A stretch of DNA of 64,000 bases from Balanoglossus misakiensis. Taxonomy: Eukaryota; Animalia; Hemichordata. Position 1 is the stretch's first letter. Each line of letters begins with the position of its first letter. Positions 8,652-54,328 of the stretch are shown piece after piece. Both the position numbers and the translations under genes were made by a program. The stretch is from the NCBI GenBank assembly GCA_040954595.2, contig CM082597.2, forward strand, positions 8,390,343-8,454,342. Direction: 5' to 3'. The notes under the pieces are model-generated. The model was given only the letters and a program-made list of their open reading frames with translations. It was not told where the DNA came from and searched no databases.

Positions 8652-9931
8652 AGATCACAACAAGTGATGACTCATAGAGGAGGAACCACAGCATGTGATG
8701 ACTCATCTAACCTGTCCACTTACCTAGACATTTAGGACAGCACTGCCCTGGTACACTTGCAAAATTAGAACATGTTGTGGCTTCACACACTGTTAAATTA
8801 CAAGTCAAAGTACCATCCTGTAAATACAAATTATTTAATGGGTTATTATTATAGAAATTATGGACGACCATTGACCCTGACCCTGACCATTGATACTTTT
8901 AATAGTAAAGGAATGTATGTGTGCACCAATGTTCATGATGCATGTAGACTAGACAATGTTTCTCCTACGTGTATTAGTGGAACATTTTTGTTTCGGTTAT
9001 AAGGTCTCTGTACGTATGATTTTTAGTTTGTATGCATTTTTCCACAGCTTATGCGTACAGTGTAGGTCTTGGCATGAACACACTGCGTGTGCTTATAACC
9101 CTCAAAGCCAAAAGTGCTTTAACACAAGATGTATTCTTCATTAAAAGGACAAAGTCTCTCTCTCGCAGCCCTTTATCCATTAATTATGTTTGATACAAGA
9201 CACCGTTTATGTTATTGTACATGTGGATATATAGTGAATCAACGTTCAACCACCCACAATTTCTATCCTGTTTGTAGACACGAGAGTGAAAAACTCGCCG
9301 AAATAAATAATTGGTCTCTACCATTTATCCATTTTGGGCGAGTTTTTACTCTCATATCCTACGAACGGGATGGAAGTTGTGTGTGGTCGAAAGTTGATTC
9401 ACTACATGTATATATCCACATGTAGAATAACATAAACAATGTCTTGTATCAAACATAATTAATGGAAAGGGGCAGCTAGAGAGAGAGACTTTGTGCAGTG
9501 ATGAGAACTTACCAGACACAAGCAGGATCTACACACATCACCAAGAGGGTTGAAGCGATCATCATCAGCATACAAGATATTATTGTATTCACACAGACTA
9601 CAGTCTGGACAGCAATCAGAAGCTGTGTACAGTCCATGCTCACATGTTACTGGGCACTCTAATTCTGTACAGGTAATCTTGGAATCAGGCTGAAAGAGGA
9701 ACGACAACTATCAGGTTCATACTGTAAAACACTTTACTTTCACGAGTTGAAATTTTCACGATATCGAGAGAGGCCACTGTTTCGCGAGTATTAATTTTCA
9801 CATTCTCTTATTTCATTCACTGCATCGTTATCTTCAAAAAAATGTTATGCGACTTTTTATTTTCACGCTATTTTGGCTCTCGTGTATTTCGCGAAAATTT
9901 ATTGCTCGCAAAAATAAAGTATTTTACAGTA
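8652..9931 (+). repeat. Segmental duplicate of 43655-44945
   Basis: Near-identical intron, MITE and VWC exon sequence; ORFs 8772/43775, 9129/44163 and 9459/44395 match. Confidence 0.93.
9722..9929. mobile_element. TA-flanked CTGTAAAA...TTTTACAG MITE (Tc1/mariner-pogo type); copies at ~19089, 19839-20014, 22306-22514, 27000-27150, 31085-31275, 33884-34089, 34322-34520, 34563-34768, 44754-44943
   Basis: ta|ctgtaaaa...ttttacag|ta termini with internal TTTTCGCG/CGCGAAAA motifs; about 10 copies. Confidence 0.82.
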
Positions 9932-29600: not shown

Positions 29601-32600
29601 AACACATGATTGGTTAAAAGTGTAGACATCATACATTGAGAGACCAGTTTCTCCAGGTGGCAGATAGAATCCACCTGTGCCGTTATTTGCATATAAGAGA
29701 TAGCCTTCTTCACAGGAACATTGAAAACCACCTGCAGTGTTTTCACAAAGTTGATCACAAGAATGTGAAGCACATTCATTTATATCTACAAAGAAAGAAC
29801 ATGGATTGGATTAAAACAATGTACGTTCAGTAAAATTGAAAGTATTGTCATTTCTTTTAATCGTGAATTTTAGGATTATCTTGTGTACGTACAAGATGAA
29901 TCTGTGATAAAATAAAGGCGTCACCTTGCTTGCTTTTGAAATACAAGGCCATGAATTTAGTTGATAATAGAAGAAACCTGCTGACTCAGCATGGTTCACC
30001 AATGGTTTGTCTATGGACAAAAACCTTAAAGAAATTTATCTCAAAATAGAGCATTGTAACCACACAATTTTATTTGACCAATGAATTTATATTTACTAGA
30101 CTGAGCTATGTGTAAAATTTCGTGAAAATGACAATAGTAGAAGTTTGTTTTCTAGCAATTATCAATGTAATCCTATGAGAAAAAGACACCTGAGATTAAA
30201 AGGTCATTCCAAAAATTTATATTTATATTTATATTTACTAGACTGAGCTATGTGTAAAATTTCGTGAAAATGACAATAGTAGAAGTTTGTTTTCTAGCAA
30301 TTATCAATGTAATCCTATGAGAAAAAGACACCTGAGATTAAAAGGTCATTCCAAAAATTTATCCGGAATTCTGAAATAAGTTCAGAATGTGTTAAATGTT
30401 AAAATAGTGACTTGAAGTTATGTTGCAAGTGACTTATTTATTTCTCACACTCCTGGCATGCTGGGAGTGTGAGAACACAGTGTGAGAACAAATTGTTCTC
30501 ACACTCTCACTGAATCGAAAGCTGTATATGACGCGAGCGCTGATTGGTTGACAAAGCGTTCTTTCGCTACGCGCGCTAAATGTTATCCAATGGCGCGATG
30601 TGTATTACAGGCACAGAACTACAACGTGCCCCCAGACGACAGTTCCAGAGTCATTTATTCAATGTTTTTAACGATTTTGGCTAATTTGTGGCCGTGTGAG
30701 AAAAATAATCTCACACACCAAGGACCTGGGATCATATTTCTCACACTCGTCGGGGATATTCTGTCCCACACTCGCCTGCGGCTCGTGTGGGACAGAAAAT
30801 CCCCGACTCGTGTGAGAAATATGATCCCAGGTCCTTGGGAGTGTGAGATTCTATTAGTCTCACCTTTGCATGCAGTTCCATTCACATCTGGTTCAAATCC
30901 CACCAAACATGCACACTGATAGTCACCATCTCTATTTTCACAGTCTTGATTGATTCCACACAGTGCCACCAATGTACTACATTCATTGATATCTGAAATG
31001 TTATTCATCAAGATATGATCAAAATACCACAGGTCCACTGGTAAATTCAGACCAACAAGTTTAGCTGGGAAGCACCAGACCAACAGGAAATGTTCACAAA
31101 CAAATTTTCGCGAACTATGCAAGAGCCAAAACAAAAGACGTTTTTGCGTAAAAAACAATTTTCAGTGATAACAATGCAGTGAAATACAAGAACATGAAAA
31201 TTAATCGTCTCATAACAGTTTCTGCTTTTGATATCGCAAAAAATTTCTTTGTCGCGAAAATTTCCCGTTTTACAGTAATCAATGAAAAATAAAATTACAA
31301 AAATCATGAAATTTCTGACAGCCATAGATTTGCATGGCATGAACTGTATGTCCTATCAGCATGTAGTTTAGGTGACATTTATGATAAATAGTCAAATTAC
31401 TGGAGTGATCGATTACGGTACCTCATAAGCAGACAACCACATGAAGACCAATCTTGATGTGAACTTACCAATGCATGATGGTATTGCACTATTACACTGT
31501 AAATCGGATTGACAAGTCAGGTAATCAGCACCATTTAATTCATAGCCAGCATCACAATAGAATGTGATGTTACTGCCCATATAATATGGTCCACTATCAG
31601 GGACAGCTTGTAGATGTGGGTCTGTTATGAGTATATCACTGCAGTTCAATCCTGCAAGTAAAAAAAATAAAACACTATGTGGATGCAGACTTGATTGTGG
31701 TATATATATTGGGTATCTGTATTCTGTCACAACTTTAACATTTTCACCCCAAGTTCCCACTATAAAAGTCCAGATACCATTGACTCCTTTTTTTCTATTA
31801 TCGACTAAATTCATGACTCTGTATTTCAAAAACAAGCGTGGTGACCCCTATATTTTATCACAAATTTTCATTATACATACATAGGATAATCCAAAAATTA
31901 ACAATTAAAAGAAATGACCATATTTTCAATTTTACTGAATGTACATCCTTAAATGACTTACGTTGACAGTATCCTGGATCTCCAATCCAAGATCCATCTT
32001 CACCACATGTAGAGACAGTGTAGCCAGTCAGACTGTAGCCAGATGGACATGAGTAGGCAACGGTTGTTCCAAAAATCAATGAATCACCATTAACAATTTC
32101 ATATGATAAGTACCGTAGTTGTCTACATTCGGCGGTGGACACTCACGAGCTGTTTGGATAAGATGAACAGATAACATTACAAGTGTGTTAATACTAGGAA
32201 AATGGTTTAAAGGGACAGAACATGTAGCAGTAACTCTCACAATCCTGCATATTTTCAAGTTACCAGTGTCTGGTTTAACATTCAGAGTGTAATGTCCCAA
32301 TTAGACACCCATGTGGAATGTAGCAACCAGCACAAAGTGCCCCATCATAACGCTATGGAGAGTATTTCAACTTGAGTCAGTGATTTTTATGAAAACATGA
32401 CAGTGAACACCCTGTGTTATACTTTGTTTTCAAAACGACTCATCACACACTTTAAAGCCTCTAGAGCTGCCAAATTTCACAATTTTTTTTCTTTTCCACA
32501 GTAAAACCTTTCAAATCTATGGTGATGCATACCACGATAGCTAGCTGCATACTGTTTGTATGGAGGCTGATTTTAATAAAATGGGTACGGCACCTGTTTA

Positions 32601-38609: not shown

Positions 38610-39281
38610 CCAACACGTGTATGTTGAATCCTGGTCTGCAACCACACTGGTAACGGGCTGGTGTGTTGTAACATACTTGTTGGCATGGCGACCAACCAGC
38701 TTGATCGCACTCATTGTCATCTGTGGGGAAAACACAAATATCATAAATTGTGTTTGAATGAATACATCTGAATTACAGTTGTCCTTGAGTGCACATTTGA
38801 AAATATACGACAAGAGAAAAAAATTGAAAGAAACTTAATAAATATCATCTGGCATATAACTTGGTCATATCATATGTTTATCTGTACCAGTACTGTATAC
38901 TGATGAACAAACAATGTAGTAACCACATTACATTTTACAAGCTAGTGTTCTGCAAGCCAAAAATATCACACACGAGACAACAAACTCAATTTTTTTTAAA
39001 TGTGTAACTTTGGAAAGTGCCTGATAACTTGTATTTATTATTTTTTTTACATGGTAACTCGCTGTTAAGTCTGTCACTTACAACTTGTGTAAGCGCCCTT
39101 TTGAGGCAGGAAATTCCAAGCCATTGTTGGCCTATCCCCTCCCCACTCAAATAAAAACTTACCTAAACAATTGACATGATCTGCACTCATAGAGAAACCA
39201 TCATCACCACAACAACAGCTGAATCCACCCTCTGCATTGAGACAACCTCCAGCACAGACAGAATCTGAACACTCATTCACA
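38610..39281 (-). CDS. Two EGF-Ca exons (39163-39281, 38610-38720)
   Basis: DVNECSDSVCAGGCLNAEGGFSC; DDNECDQAGWSPCQQVCYNTPARYQCGCRPGF. Confidence 0.85.
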
Positions 39282-41022
39282 TCTGAAAATAGAGAAAAAA
39301 AACATCCATTGTAATTATTCAAGTCAATACCAATCCTCCCTTCCATTAACAATTTCCCTAAAGGGAACAAATTCACATGGCTTTGAAATTAAGTATTAAC
39401 AGTGATATTTTAATATTTCTAACAGACACGACTTTTCTAAACTTTGAGTCTTTTTTGTGGATTTGTAGAAATTATCTACAAACTGAGCTGTCAGGTCATG
39501 GCTGTTTGTGCTTTGGCATGCACACATATCCCAGAATGCCCAACAGGGTTGGCAGTGAAATTGATAAACTCTTCACCTAAGATTTCAAACTCGTAGATCT
39601 CAATAGATTCTCACACTCCTGGCATGCTGAGAGTGTGGGATCAGAGTGCGAGAACAAATCAATCCCACATTCTCACTGAATCGAAAGCTGTATATGACAC
39701 GAGCGCTGATTGGATGACAAAGCGTTATTTAATAACGTGCGCTAAATGTTATCCAATGACGTGATACAGAAACTACAATGTGCCAGATGACAGTTCAAGA
39801 TGTTTTAAGACGAATTGGGCTAATTTATGGCCATGTGAGAAATATAATCTCACACACCAAAGACCTGGGATCATATTTCGCACACTCGTCAGGGATATTT
39901 TGTCCCACACTCGCCTGCAGCTTGTTTGGGACAGAAAATCCACAATTCATGTGAGAAATATGAAATTTGTACAGTCCTATGAACCTAAAACATGAAACAA
40001 AAAATGTTTGCTTGTTGGTAGTTTCCCGGAACAATTAAAAACCGCGTCTCCTCATCAATTTTGACATTTTGAAAGATGCTAAACAAAAATCATTTTTTGG
40101 CCTTATCGGTAACAGAGTGACGCCATTTTCTGGGTAGCCAGAACTCACTTCCGGCACAGCATTTGGGTGTTTCACATTTCTCCGTTGTTGCTGGCTTATC
40201 TGTCGACAAGCAAGGTAACGTAAATAAGGGATTTATAAGTGGCCTTGACAGTGACCATCACATAAGACTTCTTGACCCTATGACCTTTCATGTGATGAGC
40301 AGTTGCCAAAATAACTTTCTCTTTGTGACCAATCCAGACCGAACACTTTTCTATTCTACTACACAGAACAAACTAAACGCAAAGTAACTCATGAAGGAAA
40401 ACGCTGACAAAATCTACGCCTACCAGTAATTTTCAAATCAGGTAACTGCATCTGAATTTATACAAATTAATTGAATATTGCCTTTGTGGTTGTCTGATGT
40501 CAATTTTTAATTGAAGAGTTGTTGTGTTAGAGTTAACTTGTGTGAATTGCTTGCCTTTCATTCTGACAGTCAATTATAATTTCAGGATGCAGCTCCCACT
40601 TCTAGATTGAACATATGAAATATTTTAAATATATGTATTTATATTTTAATGTAAAACACTATATCACAAGTCATCCTTTCACCAGAGGTGGGCCAAACCG
40701 TAAAGGAAACTGTGAACAACCATTCAATGCTCAGATATTTGGATTGACAACTCTACTCTTTGGCACAATATTCAATTTCAAACATTTTTGAATACAGTAA
40801 TAAATGCATTTAATATTGCATGTATTAAATTTTGCTATTTTACAATTGGGGCCAGTGAGTGAGCATTTCAAAAAAAGAAAAGTCACTGTTTGTTCCTTTG
40901 ATTTGTGTATCATTTGATCACTGAAACCATACACTTTCATTGACGAGAAGTGTCAAAACATCCACAGGTCTATTCATTGAATGTGAGGTGCAAAGCTAGA
41001 AATGGAGATGTTACAAGTAGTG

Positions 41023-43647
41023 CACGAGCGTCGTATGTGGAAATCTAATGGTTGGATGAGAGAAATAAAAATCGCATTGTTTGTTGTTTGCACATGCGCA
41101 CAAAGTCATTAAATATGGCGTCCTTCATGTCATTTCGGGAACGATCGCGATCGTCGACGAAAAAAGTTGTTGCATCTGCCTCACGAGAGCATCATCTCGT
41201 TTTGACAACTCAAAATCGTATGCCAAACACTTAGGGGCATGTTTCGGAGCCGCGCTGAAGGTATGAGTGGCTATTTGTGCATGACATGCAAAGCAAGTAT
41301 TAGAAAGTTTTGCGAGGATCGATCATTGGACTTCAGCCACTTACTTGACAAAAAAGGCCAGAAAGGTGGAAGTAAAGGACAAAGGCAGTATGGGGGACAA
41401 AGAATAAAACTGGCAAGGTGGGAGAGTTCTTCATCCACGTCGACGAGTAGCGAGGAAATAGGCAGCGAAGGTTGCGGCTGTGACTACCGGAGTTGGTTAT
41501 CTGCGGCAGGTGCATGTGGATTGCTGCCACCCGATGTCATTGTCAGTATTCTTCATCACGTAAATGTCACTGATATTGTGAATTTCACATCAACATGTTC
41601 ATTTCTGCATACATTTCGAGCTGATGCTATAATTTGGTGTCAGAAATGTATTCATGATTTTCCAGAGAAGTATGCCACACTGATATCTCATAAGGCAGGC
41701 TTTTTTTATTACACCACATCATGGTTTGAAATTTACAAATTATCGAAATTTTCTGATCTCAACCACCAAAATGACACACAGCAATATTTAAGTCAGATCA
41801 AATCACTGTCTGTTCATATGAATAATGCTTCATGGAAATTAATGACCTGAAGGAAAAGTTGGCAGAAACATAGAACTCTCTCAGTGATATTTTGACCATG
41901 TCACCATCCAAACCACTCACAGTAACACAAGAAAAAATCTTCAAAACTATGACAGTAGTTAAAGAAATAAGGAGTTTGGATGGAACCATAAAAGCTGTTA
42001 GTTCCAGAGGAAGACCAAAAGTGTATATTGCAATACCCCAGACAGAAACATCATCGATAGAAGCTACAGAAAGATCAAAAAGAGCCAAGTGTCAGCTGAT
42101 GGAGAAGATTGAAAAAATGCAGTATGTCAATAAAAATGAGAGTGGAGAACTTAATAAAGCAATTTAGTTGCTCAACATGCGTAAAGAATAAGCCGAGACA
42201 AAGCTATCTACATCAAGGCAGCACGAGAAGCTGGTATACCAGTACAAGGAACATTTTCCAGGGAAACAAGTTCTTGCTTTTAAGAGCATAATGCCAATGA
42301 CAACCTGGCAACCTGGTGTTGATGTGCTAGGAACAGAGAGGCAGTTAAGACAGGAGCTAGAAGAGATGGAGTTTAGCTATGAATACGGAGGTTTTGAGAG
42401 TGAAGAGGAAGGTGGACCAATTACAGTCCTTTATGTGCGAGTTGCAGATGTACAAGAAGTTCTTCATAAAATGGTTGCAGAGTTCAAGGCAAATGGAAAG
42501 CTGACAAATTTTGACAATATATCAAGAGACACACTGTGGCTTTGTGTATCTGGTGACAAAGGTGGCAACTCTACAAAACTGATGTTACAAGTCATGAACA
42601 ATAAGACTCAGCATTCTATTAAGCAGTCTAAACTACTGTGTTTTATTTGAGGGTGGACATGATACCCGAAAGCATATTGAGATGGTGTTCAAAGATATCA
42701 TTGCTGACTTATGCAAGTTGCAGACAGAAATCGCAGAAATGAAGCTGGAACTGCCTGAAACATTTCAGTGTGACAAAAGAACAAGGAGCCTGGGATCACA
42801 AGGTAAATTTGTAATTTCTTCTGCTTAATGTCACTAGTCATTACTTTGAAAATTTACCCGGATTTTTATGATAACACAGCAAATGTATATTAATTTGGAA
42901 ATGTTTTCATTACTAGTGCCAACAAGTGATGGTGTACGTCCAACGAGAACTACACGGACTGGATTCAAACCACTGCGACCCTTCAATGAAGATAATCAGA
43001 CTGTCAGTGTTAATTGTGCGTACTGTAAGCTGCAACATGGTAAGCAAATTGACATCACCCAATTAACAATAAATGTACAATCATTATAATTGTGAAGCGC
43101 TTCCTTTGATTAAAATCACTGGTTTTATTATAGAGAATTTAACAGTGACACCTCTTCACCTGTGTCTTGGCATCGGGCTGATGATACTGAACCTGATTGA
43201 ATCTATGTGTCTGGAATTAGATCGGACATTTTTCAGTGAGAACGGTGTACATTCTGATGAAATGGAAACCTTGCTAGAAAGTCAGAGAAAACTGTCAGAT
43301 GACTTACTCTCTTCAGAAAAGAGCTAAATTTGCTTGAAGAACAAAGTCATGAAATTCAAAAACACATAGATGATGTCAAGGAAGAGTATGCAAACTATTA
43401 TGAAAAGTCAGGTGGGAAGTTAATTGACAGGTCAAGTGATGCTAAAGATGCCAGAAGAGAAAAAACACAGAAGGAAAATGCTTTACTCGAGAAACAAAAA
43501 CTAATCAAGCTACAACTAAAACATGTTAAAGAACAACACAAATTAACAGATAATAGTCTTCAAAATGTAATAACAAAACTGGCATGTCATGCAGGTCATG
43601 GGCGATCGATTAGATTGTCAAGGCGCTTATGGCGGCGAACGCTCGTG
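41023..43647 (+). mobile_element. Internally deleted RAG1/Transib/Chapaev-like DNA transposon with CACGAGCGT termini
   Basis: Left CACGAGCGT (41023) and right ACGCTCGTG (ends 43647), with an inner AATCTAAT box at both ends, enclosing transposase fragments. No clean TSD. Confidence 0.68.
41115..43595 (+). pseudogene. Degenerate FAM60A-like zinc domain + F-box + RAG1/Transib-like DDE transposase
   Basis: CCICLTRASSRFDNSKSYAKHLGACFG...SGYLCMTC; LLPPDVIVSILHHVNVTDIVNFTSTCSFL...IW; GRPK; WQPG; LCVSGDKGGNSTK; PLHLCLGIG. Multiple frameshifts and stops. Confidence 0.7.
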
Positions 43648-43654
43648 TGAGGTG

Positions 43655-44945
43655 AGATCACAACAAGTGATGACTCATAGAGGAGGAAGCACAGCATGTG
43701 ATGACTCATCTAACGTGTCCACTTACCTAGACATTTAGGACAGCACTGCCCTGGTACACTTGCAAAATTAGAACATGTTGTGGCTTCACACACTGTTAAA
43801 TTACAAGTCACAGTACCATCCTGTAAATACAAATTATTTAATGGGTTATTATTATAGAAATTATGGACGACCATTGACCCTGACCCTGACCATTGATACT
43901 TTTAATAGTAAAGGAATGTATGTGTGCACCAATGTTCATGATGCATGTAGACTAGACAATGTTTCTCCTACGTGTATTAGTGGAACATTTTTGTTTTGAT
44001 TATAAGGTCTCTGTACGTATGATTTTTAGTTTGTATGCATTTTTCCACAGCTTATGCGTACAGTGTAGGTAACTCGAAAAAAAACAACAAAAAACTTAAG
44101 TCTTGGCATGAACACACTGCGTGTGCTTATAACCCTCAAAGCCAAAAGTGCTTTAACACAAGATGTATTCTTCATTAAAAGGACAAAGTCTCTCTCTCGC
44201 AGCCCTTTATCCATTAATAATGTTTGATACAAGACACCGTTTATGTTATTCTACATGTGGATATATAGTGAATCAACGTTCAACCACCCACAATTTCTAT
44301 CCCGTCTGTAGACACGAGAGTGAAAAACTCGCCGAAATAAATAATTGGTCTCTACCATTTATCCATTTTGGGCGAGTTTTTACTCTCATATCCTTCAAAC
44401 GGGACGGAAGTTGTGTGTGGTCGAAAGTTGATTCACTACATGTATATATCCACACGTAGAATAACATAAATAATGTCTTGTATCAAACATCATTAATGGA
44501 AAGGGGCAGCTAGAGAGAGACTTTGTGCAGTGATGAGAACTTACCAGACACAGGCAGGATCTACACACATCACCAAGAGGGTTGAAGAGATCACCATCAG
44601 CATACAAGATGTTATTGTATTCACACAGACTACAGTCTGGACAGCAATCAGAAGCTGTGTACAGTCCATGCTCACATGTTACTGGACACTCTAATTCTGT
44701 ACAGGTAATCTTGGAATCAGGCTGAAAGAGGAACGACAACAATCAGGTTCATACTGTAAAACACTTTATTTTCGCGAGCAATAAATTTTCGCCAAAATAG
44801 TGTGAAAATAAAATGTCGCATAATTTTTTTAAGATAACGATGCAGTGAATGAAATAAGAGAACGTGAAAATTAATACTCGCGAAACAGTGGCCTCTCTCG
44901 ATATTGCAAAAATTTCAACTTTCGAAAATTAAGTGTTTTACAGTT
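43655..44945 (+). repeat. Segmental duplicate of 8652-9931, including VWC exon 44544-44721
   Basis: Near-identical sequence starting agatcacaacaagtgatgac. Confidence 0.93.
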
Positions 44946-45054: not shown

Positions 45055-46285
45055 CAATCTGATTAAAATCAGATGTAGGGAACAGCGACTTGGTTTTTCT
45101 TATGCTGTCGCCTCACACTACATCTGACCAACTCTCAATGGAGATCCCGCTGAACTTTACGAGATTTACTGGGAATATAAACCAATTAGAAGGCGCCTTA
45201 TAGCAAATGATAGGCAACCCACAATCACATCACCTGGCCCCTTGCGGTTGTTACCATGGAGCTACCACAGACATATATCTCGGGCGCGAGAGTCGAATCA
45301 ACGTGGGGAATGGTTTCGAGCCAGTTCAGCGTGACGACTGAACCTCTATATTCCACCGGTCAACGAAATGTATAAGACGTGGCAACAAGTCGCAGTAAAA
45401 TTGTTAGAGAATCGATTACATTTGTGTAAGGCCGTCCCAGAGAGAGATTCTGTCGCCACGATCGTTTGTATACACCAGAGTGTACCGACCGACTGCATAG
45501 TGCACTGACTTGACTAGCTCTGCATGCAGGTCTGTGTGTTCCCGGCGTTACACAGACGTTAGAATAAGTTAATCGCATCATATTTGGGGTCAGTTGAAGT
45601 AGACAGGGAAAGGGTTTTGCAGAGATTTCGACAGAAAAAGCTGCGGTCGGGCGTCCGGGTCCGGACAGCAGACGCACCAGTTTTGTCTATGGGGCCTTAT
45701 CCAGGGCTGTGGTGCGTCGGGAACACACATACCTGAACGCGGAGCTATGAGTTGACATTCCTTAGGCGAAGTTAGCGTTCTTTTTAAAAATTTGTCACAT
45801 AAATTGTTTTGGGATACATGGCAGTGAAATTTGGTTTATTTTTTATTAACTTTTACATGAAGTACGTCATTTTCCCCGACTGGCAGCATGACTACGAGGG
45901 CAAACATGACGACTTGTTATGAGAGTTTATAAATGATCCACGACAGTTCATCATGTGTATATGGCTACAGCTCGACGTTGCACTGCTCTGCGAAAACCAC
46001 TCGCATACGATGACGCCAAACAAAGAAAGATATCATGGGATTACATGTAATTGTTCACAAGAGAAAGCCAATCTGTCGTATTCTGTGCGATACTCGAAGT
46101 CAACAACAAAATTTCTCCCATCTCCCAGTGCAATTCTTTAGTCGGCATAACAGTCAATCTGATTGGCCGGGTCGGAATGCGCGATTTCAGCGGGATCTCC
46201 ATTGAGAGTTGGTGAGATGTAGTGTGAGGCGACAGCATAAAAAAAACCAAGTCGCCGTTCCCTACACCTGATTTTAATCAGATTG
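45055..46285. mobile_element. Non-autonomous DNA transposon, ~100-bp TIRs, 9-bp TSD (Mutator-like)
   Basis: actattcac|CAATCTGATTAAAATCAG ... CTGATTTTAATCAGATTG|actattcac. Confidence 0.85.
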
Positions 46286-47705: not shown

Positions 47706-48625
47706 TTAAACAATATTTTGTTTGTAAACTGTCTGTGTTTGGACATTGCTGAATTCTTAGGGTCAGGATTAAATTTAACCATCAACAATAACAAGGCTGG
47801 GTATATGAAAGATAACATTTTGTTATTTTAATAGCTGAATGTAATTTTCTTTCAAATTTTACCGACCTGGAAATGGATTTAAGTATACATATCATTCCAT
47901 GGTAGCACGAGTTTCTGCTTTACTACAAATTCATTCTCCCAATCCTGACTAGATTTGAGATGCAGATCATCCTTATGTAAATGAATGCTTCATCAATAAA
48001 CTTGATGACACAACAGATCTAACTACATGTGCGGTTACCTTAACAACTATGACAACAATGTCCAGGGTTGGGCAATGGATGTGTGCATTCATGTTTACAT
48101 ATCTGTTTGACACAAGTTACAATTCCTTCACTACAGGTACAGATTTCACATTCATCAACAGGACTGGTCCGTGTAGAATTGTGGTGATATTCTATATTGT
48201 TGAATACACAACCTATAGCACAAAAAGATTCGTTTGGAATCAATTATTCTTTGGAAATAATTACCAAGAGCTTTATACTTTTGATTAAAACCTTAACACT
48301 ACTGGGCGTCATACCCGTTTAGAGTGTCAGGGGCCCTTAAAATATATATGTGCCCTTTTTCTTCTTAAAGGTATTTTGACTGTCTTGGCATGGCTCTCTA
48401 ACGTACTTAAACACACTTGGCAGTCTGAGCCCCCTGTAAAATGTACCATATCGCACTGGTTTGCACTGTATTGGTCTGAGGGTCTTGTATACACCACTTT
48501 CATAAGTAGCGCCCTGTACAGGCGATGACGTCATTCGGGGGAAAGTTTGAAGAAGCCATTTTGTCAACGGTATTTTTCTTATGTGGCGCCTGGTGTTTTT
48601 TCAACGCGGTCGCGGGAAGCTGGAA

Positions 48626-51252
48626 ATGGCTGCAAAAATGGTGAGTGCGATTTCAGTTTTCTTCTCAAAGTCCTTATTTGGTTCTGCCAAGTAATTTCAG
48701 ACTGCCGGTCACTCATAAATATTCATCGGCGGCATTAATTTTCATTACTTAAATATTTACATCCTATTACTTATTCATGTCCTCAACGTACTTGCTCTAA
48801 GCAGCTCAGTGATCGAGTTTTCATTCACAACTAATACAAAAGACCAAATAGCTACAATGACACAACATCTGAACAACTAAATACTATTTGCAACTGTTTC
48901 ACACCTCTGGTTTTTGTTTCCTTCACGATCTTTTGTTTATTTAACAGCAATGTACATGGGCCAGCCAGGGCTGCAATTTTTATCACTTTCATTCCATTGA
49001 CAGGCTATCCTTTGAGCTACCACTGAGCTGACTGAAGTGAATCATGAGTTTTCAGAACGGTAGAGTGGCAAATGCTGTGCAGCCTAGCTGTAATTGTACA
49101 AATGTGAGTGATTGTTTTTCAGATGCTTCAATAATGGTTACACATGCAAAGTGAGAATTCACATATTTTCAGTAGAAATATGCCTAATTGAAATATTCAT
49201 TTGTGTTGATAATTTTTTAATGTTTGAACTACTTTATCCAGGTGACCAGACCCCTAATTAAATGCTTTGACTTTTTTTCTATATAGCTAACTGAGGAAGA
49301 CATACCGGGTTCTGTTTTATCGAAGGATGTTGAAAAATGCAAAAAGAGTGAACTACAGTTTTGGTTAAAATGCCATGGATTAGTGCACAATTCGGCGGAT
49401 ACCAGGGCAACACTCATAACAAGGTCATTATTACTCTTGCTTTTCACTAAATAGAGTCCAATGTGTTGAATGCTGATATTGATGTAATGGTCATTAAATG
49501 CTTTGAAATATCTATCAAAACATGTTTTTCAGAGTCCGGAAGAGGTACCATGATGCCCATACTATTGTTGACCCTGATCCAGGACTGTGTTACACACGGG
49601 CGAAGAGGCTCCGTTGTCCAAGATGTAAAGATGAATACACTGTTGATAAGACTCAAACTGTGGACATTTCTAGTTGTGATGATTGGACCAGTTCTTGTGG
49701 TTCAATACCAACAGGTTTCTCATATGTTCAAATTATGAACCATGTGAAAAAGTCGGGCAAAGTTGTTGGGGATTATGTTGAAAAACCACTTGATAAAGGG
49801 TACACATTTTTTTATGAAAATTATGTACACAATGTAAAAAGCTGCAAAACAGACACACATTGTTTAATCAAAGGGAGGTGTTACAGGTCCCAAAAGAAAA
49901 ATGAACCGCCCCATTTTGTCAGCTTGTCACTATGTTTAGTAACAGCTGAGGTTTTTAATGCAAAGTGCTCATGTGTTGCAGGTACTGCAGGACATTGCAA
50001 TCATATAGTGGGACTTTTATATTTACTTGACCACTGCAAGAAATTAAAACTGAGAGAGTTTCCTTTACTGGGAACATGCACAGATAATCCACAAAAGTGG
50101 CATCGTCCCAGGACTGATGGAATTGCACCTGAACCAATAATGGGATACAATGTTTTTAGACCAAAGTATGGGACATCTTCCTCTGGGGTAGCTTGTACTT
50201 TGTATGAAGCTAGGGGGAAAGCTGTATTGCAGACATCAAATGATCAATTGAAAGAGCTCAGTAATGATATTCAGGACTTAAATTTGGGTTTTTCTCATTT
50301 GACCCCCACAACTGATGATACTGATATGGTACCAACAAAAATGGGTTTCCATGTGCCTGTGGGTAGTGTTCTCAGTTACCAGTTGTCCTTAACCGAAGGC
50401 AATTTTGATGTCCTGTGTAATATTTCCAATGATTTCATTGTAGAATTTATTGCAGAAACCTACCCTAGGCTTCCACTGTCTGCTGTCCCTATCTTCAACA
50501 TTAATGGCCCTTGTATTGAGAGTGTGTCAAAGTTCCTAGATAAACTTAAGCTGAACTCTGATGCATCAGCGCAACTAGAAGAACAGACCCGTGGCCAGTG
50601 TTGTAACCCCTTATGGTTTGAAGCCAGGAAATTCAGATTAACGAGCAGCAAATTTGGGGGGGTTGTTAAAAAAAGACCTTGGGGAAATCATAGCAAATTT
50701 GTACGCAGCTTATTAATCACAAAAGACATGTCGCATATTCCAGCAATAAAATATGGCCAGGATAACGAATCAAAAGCTTTAAAAAAATATGAAGATTTCA
50801 TGATAAGTAGTGGTAGGCAGGTTTCTGTTTTTAGGGCGGGTTTAGTTGTGAACCCATCAATGTCCTGGTGTGGCGCATCACCAGATGCCAAAGTTATTGA
50901 TGAACACAGTGGTGTTGGGATTGCTGAAATAAAATGTGCATATGCATATAGAGATGTCAGCCCCAGAGATGCATGTAGTGACACAAGATTTTATTGAGAA
51001 ATAGTGGATGGTGTGCCTCGTCTTAAAAAAAATCATAATTATTATTTTCAAGTTCAAGGCCAGATGGGCATATGTGGTGTGTCATGGTGCGACTTCGTTG
51101 TATACACAAATAAAGGTCTGTTGATAGAGAGAATAAAGTTTGACGTTTCTTTCTGGGAGTCAATGATGGAAAAACTTATTGGTTTTTACGAGACACATTT
51201 TGTTCATGTAGCATCTGAAATGATAGATTTTGTAAATATAGATGCAAATTAA
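48626..51252 (+). pseudogene. Element A SAP-SWIM-YqaJ (lambda-exonuclease-like) gene; exons 48626-48640, 49287-49423, 49533-51252
   Basis: MAAKM|LTEEDIPGS...ELQFWLKCHGL...TRATLITR (SAP-like); CSCVAGTAGHCNH (SWIM); WFEARKFRLTSS, GASPD, EIKC, YYFQVQGQM. In-frame TGA at 50995. Confidence 0.88.
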
Positions 51253-51331
51253 GCTGAAATGATAGATTTTGTATATATAGGAGCAAATTAAGCTGAAATG
51301 ATAGATTTTGTAAATATAGATGCAAATTAAA
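51215..51331 (+). repeat. 39-bp tandem triplication spanning the nuclease stop codon
   Basis: ctgaaatgatagattttgtaaatatagatgcaaattaag x3. Confidence 0.9.
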
Positions 51332-51622
51332 CTACTATTGTACTAGCAGTATGGAATTCAGTCTTGTTTTATTGTTGTTTTAACATGCACAATACAATTC
51401 AACAAAAACAATTACCATTAGATATCTCATACATGACCCTGTTATTTATTATATTAAAATCTCAGTATTGTCCCGTTATAGCCCCAGTAACACTAATTTT
51501 GAGACACTGTGTCAGTATTTTTTGTTGTTACTCCATATTTCCAAAACATGATGAAAAAAACAACAGAAATGTTATTTAATAACATTTCTGTTTTTTTTTT
51601 CATCATGTTATACCACCGGGCT

Positions 51623-53811
51623 TTAATCTGGCACAGAAATGATTGGGTTCTGGAAGAGAGTCAAAAGTGCACAGACTGTCCATATCTGATTGATTGACCC
51701 TGTTAATGACATAGGGGTTCACAGAATCAAAAATATGGAAATTTTTCACTTTATTTATTGCTCTTTCTACATGGATTCTTTCTGATGCAATCTGCTGAGT
51801 TTCAATAACATCACAATCTGGCATTTGTCCCCTTTGCCCCAGAAATGGTGGGATATTTAGCTTTACATTGATTGGATCAAGTAGATCCTGAATATCAAAG
51901 CCTTTGTCAGCTAGTATGCCATCTCCTGGCTCAAATTAATTTTGCAATAGGCCACTTCTGATGGTCAAATCACGATCTGAAATACTACCAGTGTACAGCT
52001 GTGAGACAAAGCTGATGTTACCAGCAGGACTGATTCCAATCAGACCTTTCAGTGTGTTTGTTGATTTATAATTTGAATATGATTGAGATTTCAACATTAA
52101 TGATGATGGCATTTCAATCTTTATTTCTGTTGCATCAATGATTATACGTGTATCAGCATATTTCTCTTTGAATGAATCTGGCATTGTGTTCACAACAACC
52201 TGCTTAGATGGCCATATATTTATGGTACCAAGTCGGAGATACAGAAAATTTGACCAGGACAGAACAATATTACTGACAGTGGTGACAGAAACTGAAAATC
52301 GATATGACAAATCACGCTCAAAAAGACCCAACCGTACCCTGCACAAAAAAAGAAATAACTGATTTTGCACAGACAATTTCCGCGGTCTTCTAACCTTTGT
52401 TCCAGTCTGCTGGTGGGAACTTGCTGTCTGGCGAACATTTACGAGATTTTCACCATTTGGCCCAGGGTTTACATATTTTAGAAGGGAATTAAAAACATGA
52501 ATATTAGGAAAACCTGTGTAAAAAGAAATATCACACTCTTTGATGTTCTGTATCAAAAATTCGGAGTTGCGAAGAGCAATCTCCAGACGATGGTTCTCTA
52601 CAGTTAATTGTTGGATTTTGTTTTTAAGTTCCTCCATTTCTTTGGCCATGATTTCAAAACGTGAGGAAGTTTCTTCATCAGCCCTTGCAACCTTGGTCGA
52701 TGCATCCCCAGATTCCAACTGCATCATGGTTGTCTGGTTCTCATCCGTTTTGCATAACCGCGACAGTTGCAGAGCATTAAATGGCCGACTTGGCTTAGGC
52801 TGAGCTGTTATATGAGGAATATCTTCCCAACACTTAAAAACACACGGGACAGCCCCTGAATGAATCGTCCTCCTGCCACTGAATTGGTGAAACTCAATAT
52901 CATCTTCTCTGAAACGGAGGGAGCAAACAACTGTATGATTTCCAACCTGAAAAATAAAAAACAAATATAAGCAATAGTAGAGGGATTATATTTTAGATTC
53001 AGCATGTTTCCAAAGACTTGATTTGTGTTGGAAAGCTACACAGTGGCTGTGACCTATATTTATATATGTACAACATTTACATTAATGAAATTTTCATCTA
53101 ATTCTTTAGACAGGAATATTTGATTTTTCATTTTTCATAACAGCAAGATGGTGTTTAGGGCTTTAAACAAATCGCTCCAAAATGTTCATTTTAAGAAATT
53201 TAAATACCTTAAAGGACTTGTCTTCATCACGTCTTATTTTTGTCAGCCATATCTTTTTCATTTCTTCATTTTGTGGAAATTTATGATACGTAACAGTACC
53301 ATGCCCAGGAACAGAAAACTTCCCATAGCTGGTACAGCGTGGCACAGCACAGTTTTTTTTTTTGTAGCATTCCTGGAGCTCACCTTAGAAAAAAGCTGAA
53401 TAAAAAAATAATATGTGATGTAAAAATAAATGAAAAAAACATCATGGTGGTATCTACAAGTTATGCTGATCACAGCCCTGGCTGGCCCATGTATATTGCG
53501 GTTAAATGAACAAAAGATCGTGAAGGACACAAAAACCAGAGGTGTGAAACAGTTGCTAATAGTATTTAGTTGTTCAGATGTTGTGTCATTGTAGCTATTG
53601 GGTCTTTTGTATTAGTTGTGAATGAAAACTGGATCACTGAGCTGCTTAGAGCAAGTACGTTGAGGACATGAATAAGTAATAGGATGTAAATATTTAAGTA
53701 ATGAATATTAATGCCGCCGATGAATATTTATGAGTGACCAAATTACTTGGCAGAACCAAATAAGGACTTTGAGAAGAAAACTGAAATCGCACTCACCATT
53801 TTTGCAGCCAT
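51623..53811 (-). pseudogene. Element A THAP + HTH + DDE_Tnp_4 transposase; exons 53797-53811, 53208-53395, 51623-52946
   Basis: THAP CAVPRC..HKFP..W...IRR|VCSLRF..AVP; IIDATE, SISD, ILADKGF, RIHVERAI. Lesions: poly-A frameshift near 53355, TAA at 51936, frameshift near 51715. Confidence 0.9.
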
Positions 53812-54328
53812 TTCCAGCTTCCCGCGACCGCGTTGAAAAAACACCAGGCGCCACATAAGAAAAAAACCGTTGACAAAATGGCTTCTTCAAACTTTCCCCC
53901 GAATGACGTCATCGCCTGTAGAGGGCGCTAGTTATGAAAGTGGTGTATAGGCCCTACTGAGTAACACACACTTGGCAGTCTAACAGGTCTGGGTGCCAGG
54001 ATTCTAGGAACCCTGGTAATCAAACCAGATTTAACCGACATGCCAGTGTTAGTGTTAGTGTTAGAGTGGAAAGTTGCCCAAAATTGCAACCATCATTATC
54101 TTCATACGACCAATCCTCTGAAATCAATAGGGCTGTATATCATGGAGAAGTATCTGATGGCTTCAATGCCTCTTTACGGAAAGGTACCCGGATGTAAATC
54201 AAAACGAGGCTCTAGGGGGCACTGCAGGTCAGGGACACTGCGCCATTGTTTGAACAAAGTTTGTTTACATAACATGACCTTTAGTGACACTAATATTTTG
54301 CGTACGTAAGACGTACTACGTTTAAATA

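Follow-up and report, generated by a model that had tools for sequence, protein, structure and literature searches.

DUF1280 (PF06918) corresponds to the Chapaev transposases, which are grouped with RAG1 among the RNase H-like folds (PMC3985635). Chapaev elements are characterised by CAC...GTG ends, a 3-4-bp duplication, a DDE triad and C(2)C, LH and H(4)H motifs (PMC4079192). Transib, RAG1 and the rest of the CMCT clade have these motifs too (PMC12730594), and for Kapitonov and Koonin, Chapaev is one clade within an enlarged Transib superfamily (PMC4411706). Here we describe an element found in a window of 64,000 nucleotides, the whole stretch of DNA analysed, from the hemichordate Balanoglossus misakiensis (GCA_040954595.2, contig CM082597.2, positions 8,390,343 to 8,454,342, forward strand). 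At 41023-43647 this window holds a dead 2.6-kb DNA transposon with CAC...GTG ends, whose coding remains comprise a FAM60A/ZAD-like zinc finger, an F-box and part of a DUF1280 core. It represents a real, though apparently undescribed, variant of the Chapaev-type transposases.

The likeness to Chapaev (PMC3985635, PMC4079192, PMC4411706, PMC12730594) includes the DUF1280 core, an N-terminal zinc finger and the CAC...GTG ends, and in intact relatives the D-D-E, C(2)C, LH and His motifs. Some Chapaev subgroups also have a ubiquitin-ligase module behind the finger: a RING is found at this place in RAG1 and, combined with the Chapa domain, in two Chapaev subgroups (PMC4411706). The present variant differs in that it has a single finger without conserved His instead of the two-zinc Chapa domain, an F-box at the position of the RING and, in its full-length group, H(4)D instead of H(4)H. 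Its order of finger, ubiquitin module, GRP region and DDE core parallels the NZD, RING, NBD and core of RAG1. With RAG1, RAG1L and Transib it shares the core fold and unequal ends, and 12/23-like ends have been published for some Transib families (PMC1131882), but sequence similarity is not detectable and the ubiquitin module is an F-box, not a RING. Furthermore, Transibs are without N-terminal domains, and no RAG2-like gene was seen within the decayed 2.6-kb copy, which has itself lost internal sequence.

Precedents for the other two modules are less close. The N-terminal four-Cys finger of FAM60A/SINHCAF (PF15396) is 26-43% identical over ~68 residues when coral FAM60A is compared, but the C-terminal Sin3/HDAC-binding block of that protein is missing here and the finger is fused to an F-box and a transposase. 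The nearest precedent for the F-box is its occurrence in one Zisupton isoform (Bohne 2012, as cited in PMC12062965). Caenorhabditis F-box A2, with a mariner helix-turn-helix, and fish F-box-CxC7 are described as host F-box genes that took a small transposable element (TE) domain, and the same source reports no evidence for TEs having captured F-boxes (PMC12062965). In all these fusions an F-box is joined to transposon domains; unlike in A2 and CxC7, the F-box described here lies within a complete DDE transposase of another superfamily, in several lineages. The literature searched on DUF1280/Chapaev transposases and on F-box-transposase and FAM60A/SINHCAF-transposon links, judged mostly at listing level, gave no description of this architecture, in line with an earlier sequence-only reading of this DNA that knew of no description.

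The element and its coding parts

The features of the element, in order of position, are the following.

41023..41031, + strand: left terminus CACGAGCGT, a 9-bp inverted match with the right terminus
41042..41049, + strand: inner terminal motif AATCTAAT, 19 nt in from the left end
41168..41355, + strand: FAM60A/SINHCAF-type zinc finger (CCxC...CF...GxxCxxC...LDK), from Pfam, family profile and alignment
41515..41670, + strand: F-box, from Pfam F-box-like, family profile and the fold of relative P0035
41886..42270, + strand: region with GRP motif (GRPK at 42009-42020), putatively DNA-binding and NBD-like
42225..42802, + strand: first half of the DUF1280 (Chapaev) RNase H core, Pfam E 4e-14
42803..42916, + strand: putative GT-AG intron, from the sequence and a break in the P0001 alignment
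43076..43077, + strand: internal deletion junction, second Asp (GGDW) and C(2)C gone, from P0001 and P0176 alignments and contigs
43076..43587, + strand: LH motif (43154-43159) and coiled-coil insertion, with a frameshift near 43320
43587..43588, + strand: second deletion junction, YHxG-GN segment, His motif and catalytic Glu gone
43609..43616, - strand: inner terminal motif AATCTAAT, 31 nt in from the right end
43639..43647, - strand: right terminus CACGAGCGT, ending ...GTG, an inverted match to the left terminus

The sequence-only reading had placed a RAG1/Transib-like transposase, fused to a FAM60A/SINHCAF-like zinc domain and an F-box, at 41115..43595. The location is right and the true extent slightly larger, from ~41023 to 43647; all the segments it named were recovered where it had put them, on the + strand and spread over three frames. 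When nine pieces of the window copy were scanned with Pfam, the finger's first half sufficed for a FAM60A match at E 7.1e-5, F-box-like was matched at E 4.8e-5 (23.5 bits, slightly below the cut-off of 24.3) and DUF1280 at E 4.1e-14, and the RAG1 family was not matched at E<=10. Hidden Markov models (HMMs) built from relatives agree, with 39.8 and 20.3 bits for the two halves of the finger, 31.2 bits for the F-box and 165 bits for the core. The core thus belongs, by sequence, to DUF1280, i.e. the Chapaev transposases, and not to Transib or RAG1L.

The copy is dead, as had been concluded from the sequence alone: its frames carry frameshifts and stops, and the second-Asp and Glu regions are missing. 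The finger is shifted near 41257-41260, the GRP region has stops and frameshifts near 41848 and 42165-42265, and the first half of the core has a 9-codon gap near 42310 and a frameshift near 42643. The first catalytic Asp lies at 42555-42557 (SGDKGG). The nearest named protein is P0001 of the hemichordate Ptychodera flava, with 68% identity in the core, and its residues 278-410 have no counterpart in the window. Compared to the full-length relative P0176 the window copy is without residues 563-719 (second Asp, C(2)C) and 884-1099 (His motif, Glu); it retains only the first Asp of D-D-E and, of C(2)C, LH and H(4)H, only LH. Contigs of one sample depart or rejoin at 43077 and 43587 with additional letters, 334 of them in contig X1 record 7, which departs at 43587; a more complete copy or allele is therefore present in that sample. 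Two details need correction. The WQPG segment is most likely a deletion junction and not an echo of RAG1, since P0001 has nine more residues there and 27 gap letters occur in two contigs, and an upstream start at MSFRERSRS found no support, many relatives beginning within a few residues of CCxC.

The three-part architecture among relatives

With P0001 as query, 435 of 1.84 billion representatives were matched at E<=0.001, and 150 of these were listed. Of the latter, 39 picked for N-terminal extension or length were scanned with Pfam (E<=0.05): FAM60A was matched in five, an F-box family in six, and both together with DUF1280 in two (P0013 and P0035). A finger profile search of 5.8 billion proteins returned 24 proteins, six of them already in the collection. 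Three of the 18 new ones (P0171, P0172, P0176) have all three Pfam domains, and nine are host-type FAM60A proteins or exon calls, the named ones being coral. With family HMMs, which were built partly from the same proteins they were scored on, finger, F-box and core occur in this order within single unbroken chains in 30 of 258 collected proteins; clustering sorts these into 9 groups at the 90% identity level and into 5 at 60%. The colinearity that had been supposed from joined frames in the window is thus found in single proteins, and intact copies with all three domains in one open reading frame (ORF) exist among the relatives, for example P0176 and P0172. Finger, F-box and D, D, E motifs are present in 12 of the 28 proteins longer than 800 aa, two of them with a truncated finger.

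The identity of P0176 to P0172 and P0207 is 70-73% in the finger, 73-78% in the F-box and 85-89% in the core, and 46-62% in linkers, inserts and coils. That finger and F-box are kept above the linkers is, on this comparison, a mark of selection at the protein level. Within the P0176 cluster, nine other members are 96-99.9% identical to P0176. The named finger-bearing or close members are from one hemichordate and one brittle star. Most deep nodes of the core tree are open, so that it is compatible with one or several gains of the F-box; P0014 was left out of it as the anchor motif is lacking, and many of its 'none' labels may be gene calls that miss the N-terminus.

Further modules of chromatin or ubiquitin function were seen in more distant DUF1280 transposases, with gene-call fusion being possible in each case: a GNAT acetyltransferase in P0084 (E 3e-9), PHD fingers in P0116 (E 1e-7) and weakly in P0121 and P0124, and a weak RINGv in P0116 as well.

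Zinc finger and F-box

The finger is a relative of FAM60A, as the sequence-only reading had proposed by comparison with the N-terminus of that protein. The transposase-finger profile retrieves coral FAM60A at E 2.7e-9, with C-C-x-C, CF, GxxC and a V-D-S-K tail in common, and Pfam FAM60A is matched above its cut-off in P0035, P0090, P0120, P0171-P0174 and P0176-P0178. The invariant columns are C, C, C, C, F, G and C, with no His. A ZAD-like fold was assigned to the window finger from a model of relative P0173, in which the finger is one compact module of ~60 residues (pLDDT ~90) with a short last helix (44-55). Seven of 50 VIA rows cover the finger, namely five ZADs, one ZBD and one GATA finger, and the best ZAD match (Z 4.5, root-mean-square deviation (rmsd) 2.5, 56 aligned) ends at about residue 58. 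Such weak scores of the model show a common zinc-finger arrangement, not a function. Three host FAM60A sequences match Pfam zf-AD faintly (E 0.03-0.04). Searches of PDB sequences with the finger gave no match, as did a word-based search with the finger/F-box piece (0 of 660 candidates), and the RAG1 NZD was not among its Foldseek and VIA fold matches, in whose libraries an NZD entry may be absent. A net positive charge is found in 13 of 14 transposase fingers, and Cys mutants of the FAM60A finger lose promoter binding (PMC3463326). The best reading, by analogy, is that the finger is likely a nucleic-acid-binding module. The direction of its capture is not readable from the finger tree, which is unrooted and has 18 rows, 67 columns and only coral hosts.

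The F-box proposed by the sequence-only reading is borne out by the window matches and by six relatives, P0013, P0035, P0090, P0171, P0172 and P0178, in which full F-boxes exceed the Pfam cut-off. For modelled residues 106-216 of P0035 the five best VIA rows are all F-box proteins (Z 8.3-9.8), among them Fbs2 (Z 9.8, rmsd 2.6, 72 aligned), FBXO31 (Z 9.4) and FBXO3 (Z 9.2). As modelled, the domain has the three-helix F-box fold and resembles SKP1-bound F-boxes. It is followed by a coiled coil and then the transposase, and a WD40, LRR or similar substrate-recognition repeat was not found behind it. Without such a substrate domain, the ligase that is predicted to be bound would act on the transposase itself or on directly adjacent proteins. 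RAG1 is degraded via the CRL4-VprBP cullin ligase, which restrains its activity (PMC8516306). The F-box is likely a functional stand-in for the RING that would bring an SKP1-CUL1-F-box (SCF) ligase to the transposase; from fold and conservation, SCF recruitment via predicted SKP1 binding is plausible.

In view of the above we favour, at slightly better than an even chance, the explanation that this is a dead Chapaev-type (DUF1280) cut-and-paste transposon whose enzyme consisted of a zinc finger, an F-box and a RAG1-fold DDE core, with the finger likely binding DNA or chromatin and the F-box predicted to recruit an SKP1-CUL1 ligase, most likely limiting or clearing the transposase. In such an enzyme the core would bind the CAC ends, and the GRP region could bind the inner AATCTAAT motif on the two unequal ends. 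Like the FAM60A finger at promoters, the finger may assist the enzyme's loading onto DNA or chromatin. The F-box, positioned like the RING of RAG1 and two Chapaev subgroups, would recruit the host SKP1-CUL1 ubiquitin ligase. This ligase could then act on the transposase, leading to turnover or to disassembly of the complex after strand transfer, or on adjacent proteins.

Several observations weigh against this explanation. No 3-5-bp target duplication was seen around the window copy, whose possibly rearranged flanks ...AGTG and TGAG... have only TG in common. The window's own F-box falls slightly short of the Pfam cut-offs, and the closest relative, P0001, has neither finger nor F-box in its gene model. 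The F-box is reduced to its first half in P0008, P0170, P0010, P0075, P0108 and P0017 and absent in P0009, so some branches manage without it. All full-length proteins with finger, F-box and DDE fall in one 60% group, the one with H(4)D. Intact copies are known as proteins only, with putative ends and mobility: no DNA was found for P0013 among 109 metagenome-contig stretches or for P0176 among 12 viral and 37 genome contigs, and alignment of the core recovered three loci, none of them with both ends. The near-identical P0176 versions and the presence of P0193 on 11 contigs suggest, from sequence, a recent spread, but the 11 contigs may reflect repeated assemblies. For the finger, the likeness to ZADs is weak (Z<=4.5; with Foldseek, ZAD, GATA and THAP appear only at E>3), and ZADs are dimerisation modules (bioRxiv 10.64898/2026.01.24.700457) and not DNA binders.

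The strongest rival, which we regard as unlikely, is that both modules are structural or vestigial, the finger being a ZAD-like dimerisation or spacer domain that replaces Chapa and the F-box a helical linker that no longer needs SKP1. ZADs are indeed the nearest folds of the finger, the truncation or loss of the F-box in several branches would fit, and P0176-type F-boxes have a hydrophobic stretch in the second half where other members have K/R. However, the F-box is conserved about as well as the finger and well above the linkers, and the full F-boxes of the six relatives named above pass the Pfam cut-offs. The likeness to ZADs is also limited, with a short last helix in the finger and a match that stops near residue 58.

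A second rival, which appears quite unlikely, narrows the anti-silencing idea of the sequence-only reading, which had suggested binding to SIN3/HDAC. Here the finger would bind to HDAC1 or displace FAM60A by competition, while SCF, brought in by the F-box, would ubiquitylate the deacetylase complex or some other factor involved in silencing. The finger is a true FAM60A relative, FAM60A K22, which lies inside the finger, crosslinks to HDAC1 K90, and an association with HDAC1/2 and RBBP4/7 is seen for either end of FAM60A (bioRxiv 10.1101/2024.01.16.575949). Against this stands that most Sin3/HDAC binding of FAM60A is carried by aa 149-221 (PMC13254352; bioRxiv 10.1101/2024.01.16.575949; joint authors and data), and that the C-terminal block is absent from all 28 sequences tested (best E 0.19 with an HMM of the coral block), the transposases' Pfam FAM60A matches ending by profile position 135 of 206. 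Moreover, the Cys mutants of the FAM60A finger retain co-immunoprecipitation with SIN3-HDAC (PMC3463326). Because the binding part is absent and finger mutants keep the interaction, the SIN3/HDAC idea is weak; the K22 crosslink and the association of HDAC1/2 with the N-terminal part of FAM60A leave it a small chance.

A wider evolutionary proposal starts from the favoured transposase with finger and F-box, and we consider it improbable. A RAG1-fold clade would have captured an F-box and would use SCF as RAG1 and other Chapaevs use their RING, the transposase being a ligase adaptor. The single-zinc finger would be the ZAD-like ancestral state of Chapa and NZD, giving FAM60A/SINHCAF and the RAG1 N-terminus a common transposon-linked origin; in the boldest form the finger would steer SCF to HDAC1 and undo silencing. 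A 2026 preprint proposes a ZAD-like ancestor with a single zinc for both the RAG1 NZD and the Chapa domain (bioRxiv 10.64898/2026.01.24.700457). The transposase finger occupies that Chapa/NZD position without the His ligands of the second zinc site, and the terms 'FAM60' and 'SINHCAF' occur 0 times in the preprint.

Core family, element ends and host locus

In the relatives the core is more complete than in the window. DUF1280 is matched at E 9e-19 in P0176, and the D-D-E triad is present in full-length P0176, P0172, P0207 and P0002. The C(2)C and LH motifs were found in aligned relatives and H(4)H in P0002, P0159, P0028 and P0082. In the group of P0172, P0176 and P0207, which is full-length and apparently young, H(4)D takes its place (at about residue 1008 in P0176). 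A two-zinc Chapa domain with His ligands (ZFa+ZFb) was not found, the finger being one compact module whose columns are without an invariant His, and a Chapa-type pattern occurred in none of the 258 collected proteins. For this reason we regard the family as a variant within the Chapaev/DUF1280 clade rather than a canonical, Chapa-bearing Chapaev.

At the level of fold, the part of the sequence-only reading that called the transposase RAG1/Transib-like holds. With Foldseek the best matches of the P0035 model are RAG1 (E 4e-5), and VIA aligned the P0035 core, of which only the first half was modelled, with RAG1 (4wwx; Z 7.3, rmsd 6.3, 154 aligned) and HzTransib (6pqn; Z 7.0, rmsd 7.7, 147 aligned). 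The enzyme works like RAG1/Transib yet belongs to the Chapaev clade. That the element is itself a Transib or a RAG1L (ProtoRAG-like) transposon is largely refuted and very improbable. The fold matches of its core, its GRP and LH motifs, the resemblance of its ends to 12/23 spacing and the placing of Chapaev inside the widened Transib superfamily (PMC4411706) are in favour of this. On the other hand, Pfam RAG1 had no match in the window pieces or in the 39 and 18 scanned relatives, a phmmer search with P0001 (E<=10) retrieved neither RAG1 nor Transib chains from the PDB, canonical Transibs are without N-terminal domains (PMC4411706; bioRxiv 10.64898/2026.01.24.700457), and a 5-bp duplication was not seen, the 5-bp flanks TAGTG and TGAGG not matching. 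These flanks may be rearranged, and no second copy with both ends was found.

The Chapaev hallmark 5'-CAC...GTG-3' is present in the window copy, with CACGAGCGT starting at 41023 and inverted at 43647. Contig break points agree with both ends, as contigs of one sample depart behind 41022 and another contig starts at 43648. The ends are unequal in this one decayed copy, whose spacing was considered with unequal Chapaev ends already in mind: the offsets of AATCTAAT, 19 nt on the left and 31 nt on the right, are near the 12/23 geometry (19/30) of recombination signal sequences (RSS). Among 20000 random window pairs, 539 had some 8-mer in common within 41 nt and 11 had one at RSS-like offsets; of 20000 shuffles of the element's own two ends, 85 did. 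Elsewhere, at 993-1070 of locus L001 and ~600 nt upstream of the P0010 start, there is a CACACGAAGG... stretch like the window's right terminus, which may be the left end of that element.

The transposon lies antisense within an intron of a VWC/EGF host gene, for which five of six tested frames match EGF or VWC in Pfam. The two frames next to it are as follows.

39074..39385, - strand: host gene frame with EGF_CA exon, outside the element, Pfam E 1.4e-3
43713..43901, - strand: host gene frame with VWC exon, outside the element, Pfam E 2.7e-4

It is of very low probability that finger and F-box are a host gene fragment beside a transposase, or that the family is a domesticated host gene, as the break between F-box and core in the window copy and the restriction of intact copies to proteins might suggest, because the parts are colinear in single proteins of five groups mutually <60% identical, in the window they lie antisense in a host intron and are enclosed by a single pair of inverted ends, and several near-identical full-length versions exist.

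The region of the host VWC exon is duplicated over 1.1 kb with 95% identity (43655-44778 and 8652-9746), and the break point of this duplication is 7 nt from the element's right end. The duplicate at 8652-9746 was considered as an empty site and ruled out, having no match to the left flank. A palindromic repeat resembling a miniature inverted-repeat transposable element occurs twice in the same intron (39608-39963 and 30442-30824), with high depth among aligned contigs. Further along the window, 48488-53949 has long inverted repeats (~480 nt, 95-99%) around ~4.5-5 kb and is probably another DNA transposon, and at 45055-46285 two 100-nt inverted repeats (96%) stand 1031 nt apart, likely as a non-autonomous element.

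For the family, the finding provides a complete transposase that carries an F-box, rather than an F-box gene that carries a scrap of a TE, which is a case that a 2025 survey reported not to have found. With intact single-ORF members of ~1100 aa (P0176, P0172), the biochemistry of Chapaev, SKP1 binding and the use of unequal ends become directly testable. The poorly understood FAM60A finger is linked to ZAD folds and to the Chapa/NZD position. With a RING in RAG1 and some Chapaevs and an F-box here, the comparison suggests that RAG1-fold transposases have been coupled to ubiquitin ligases more than once, and such repeated coupling bears on the question of why RAG1 has an N-terminal E3 module.

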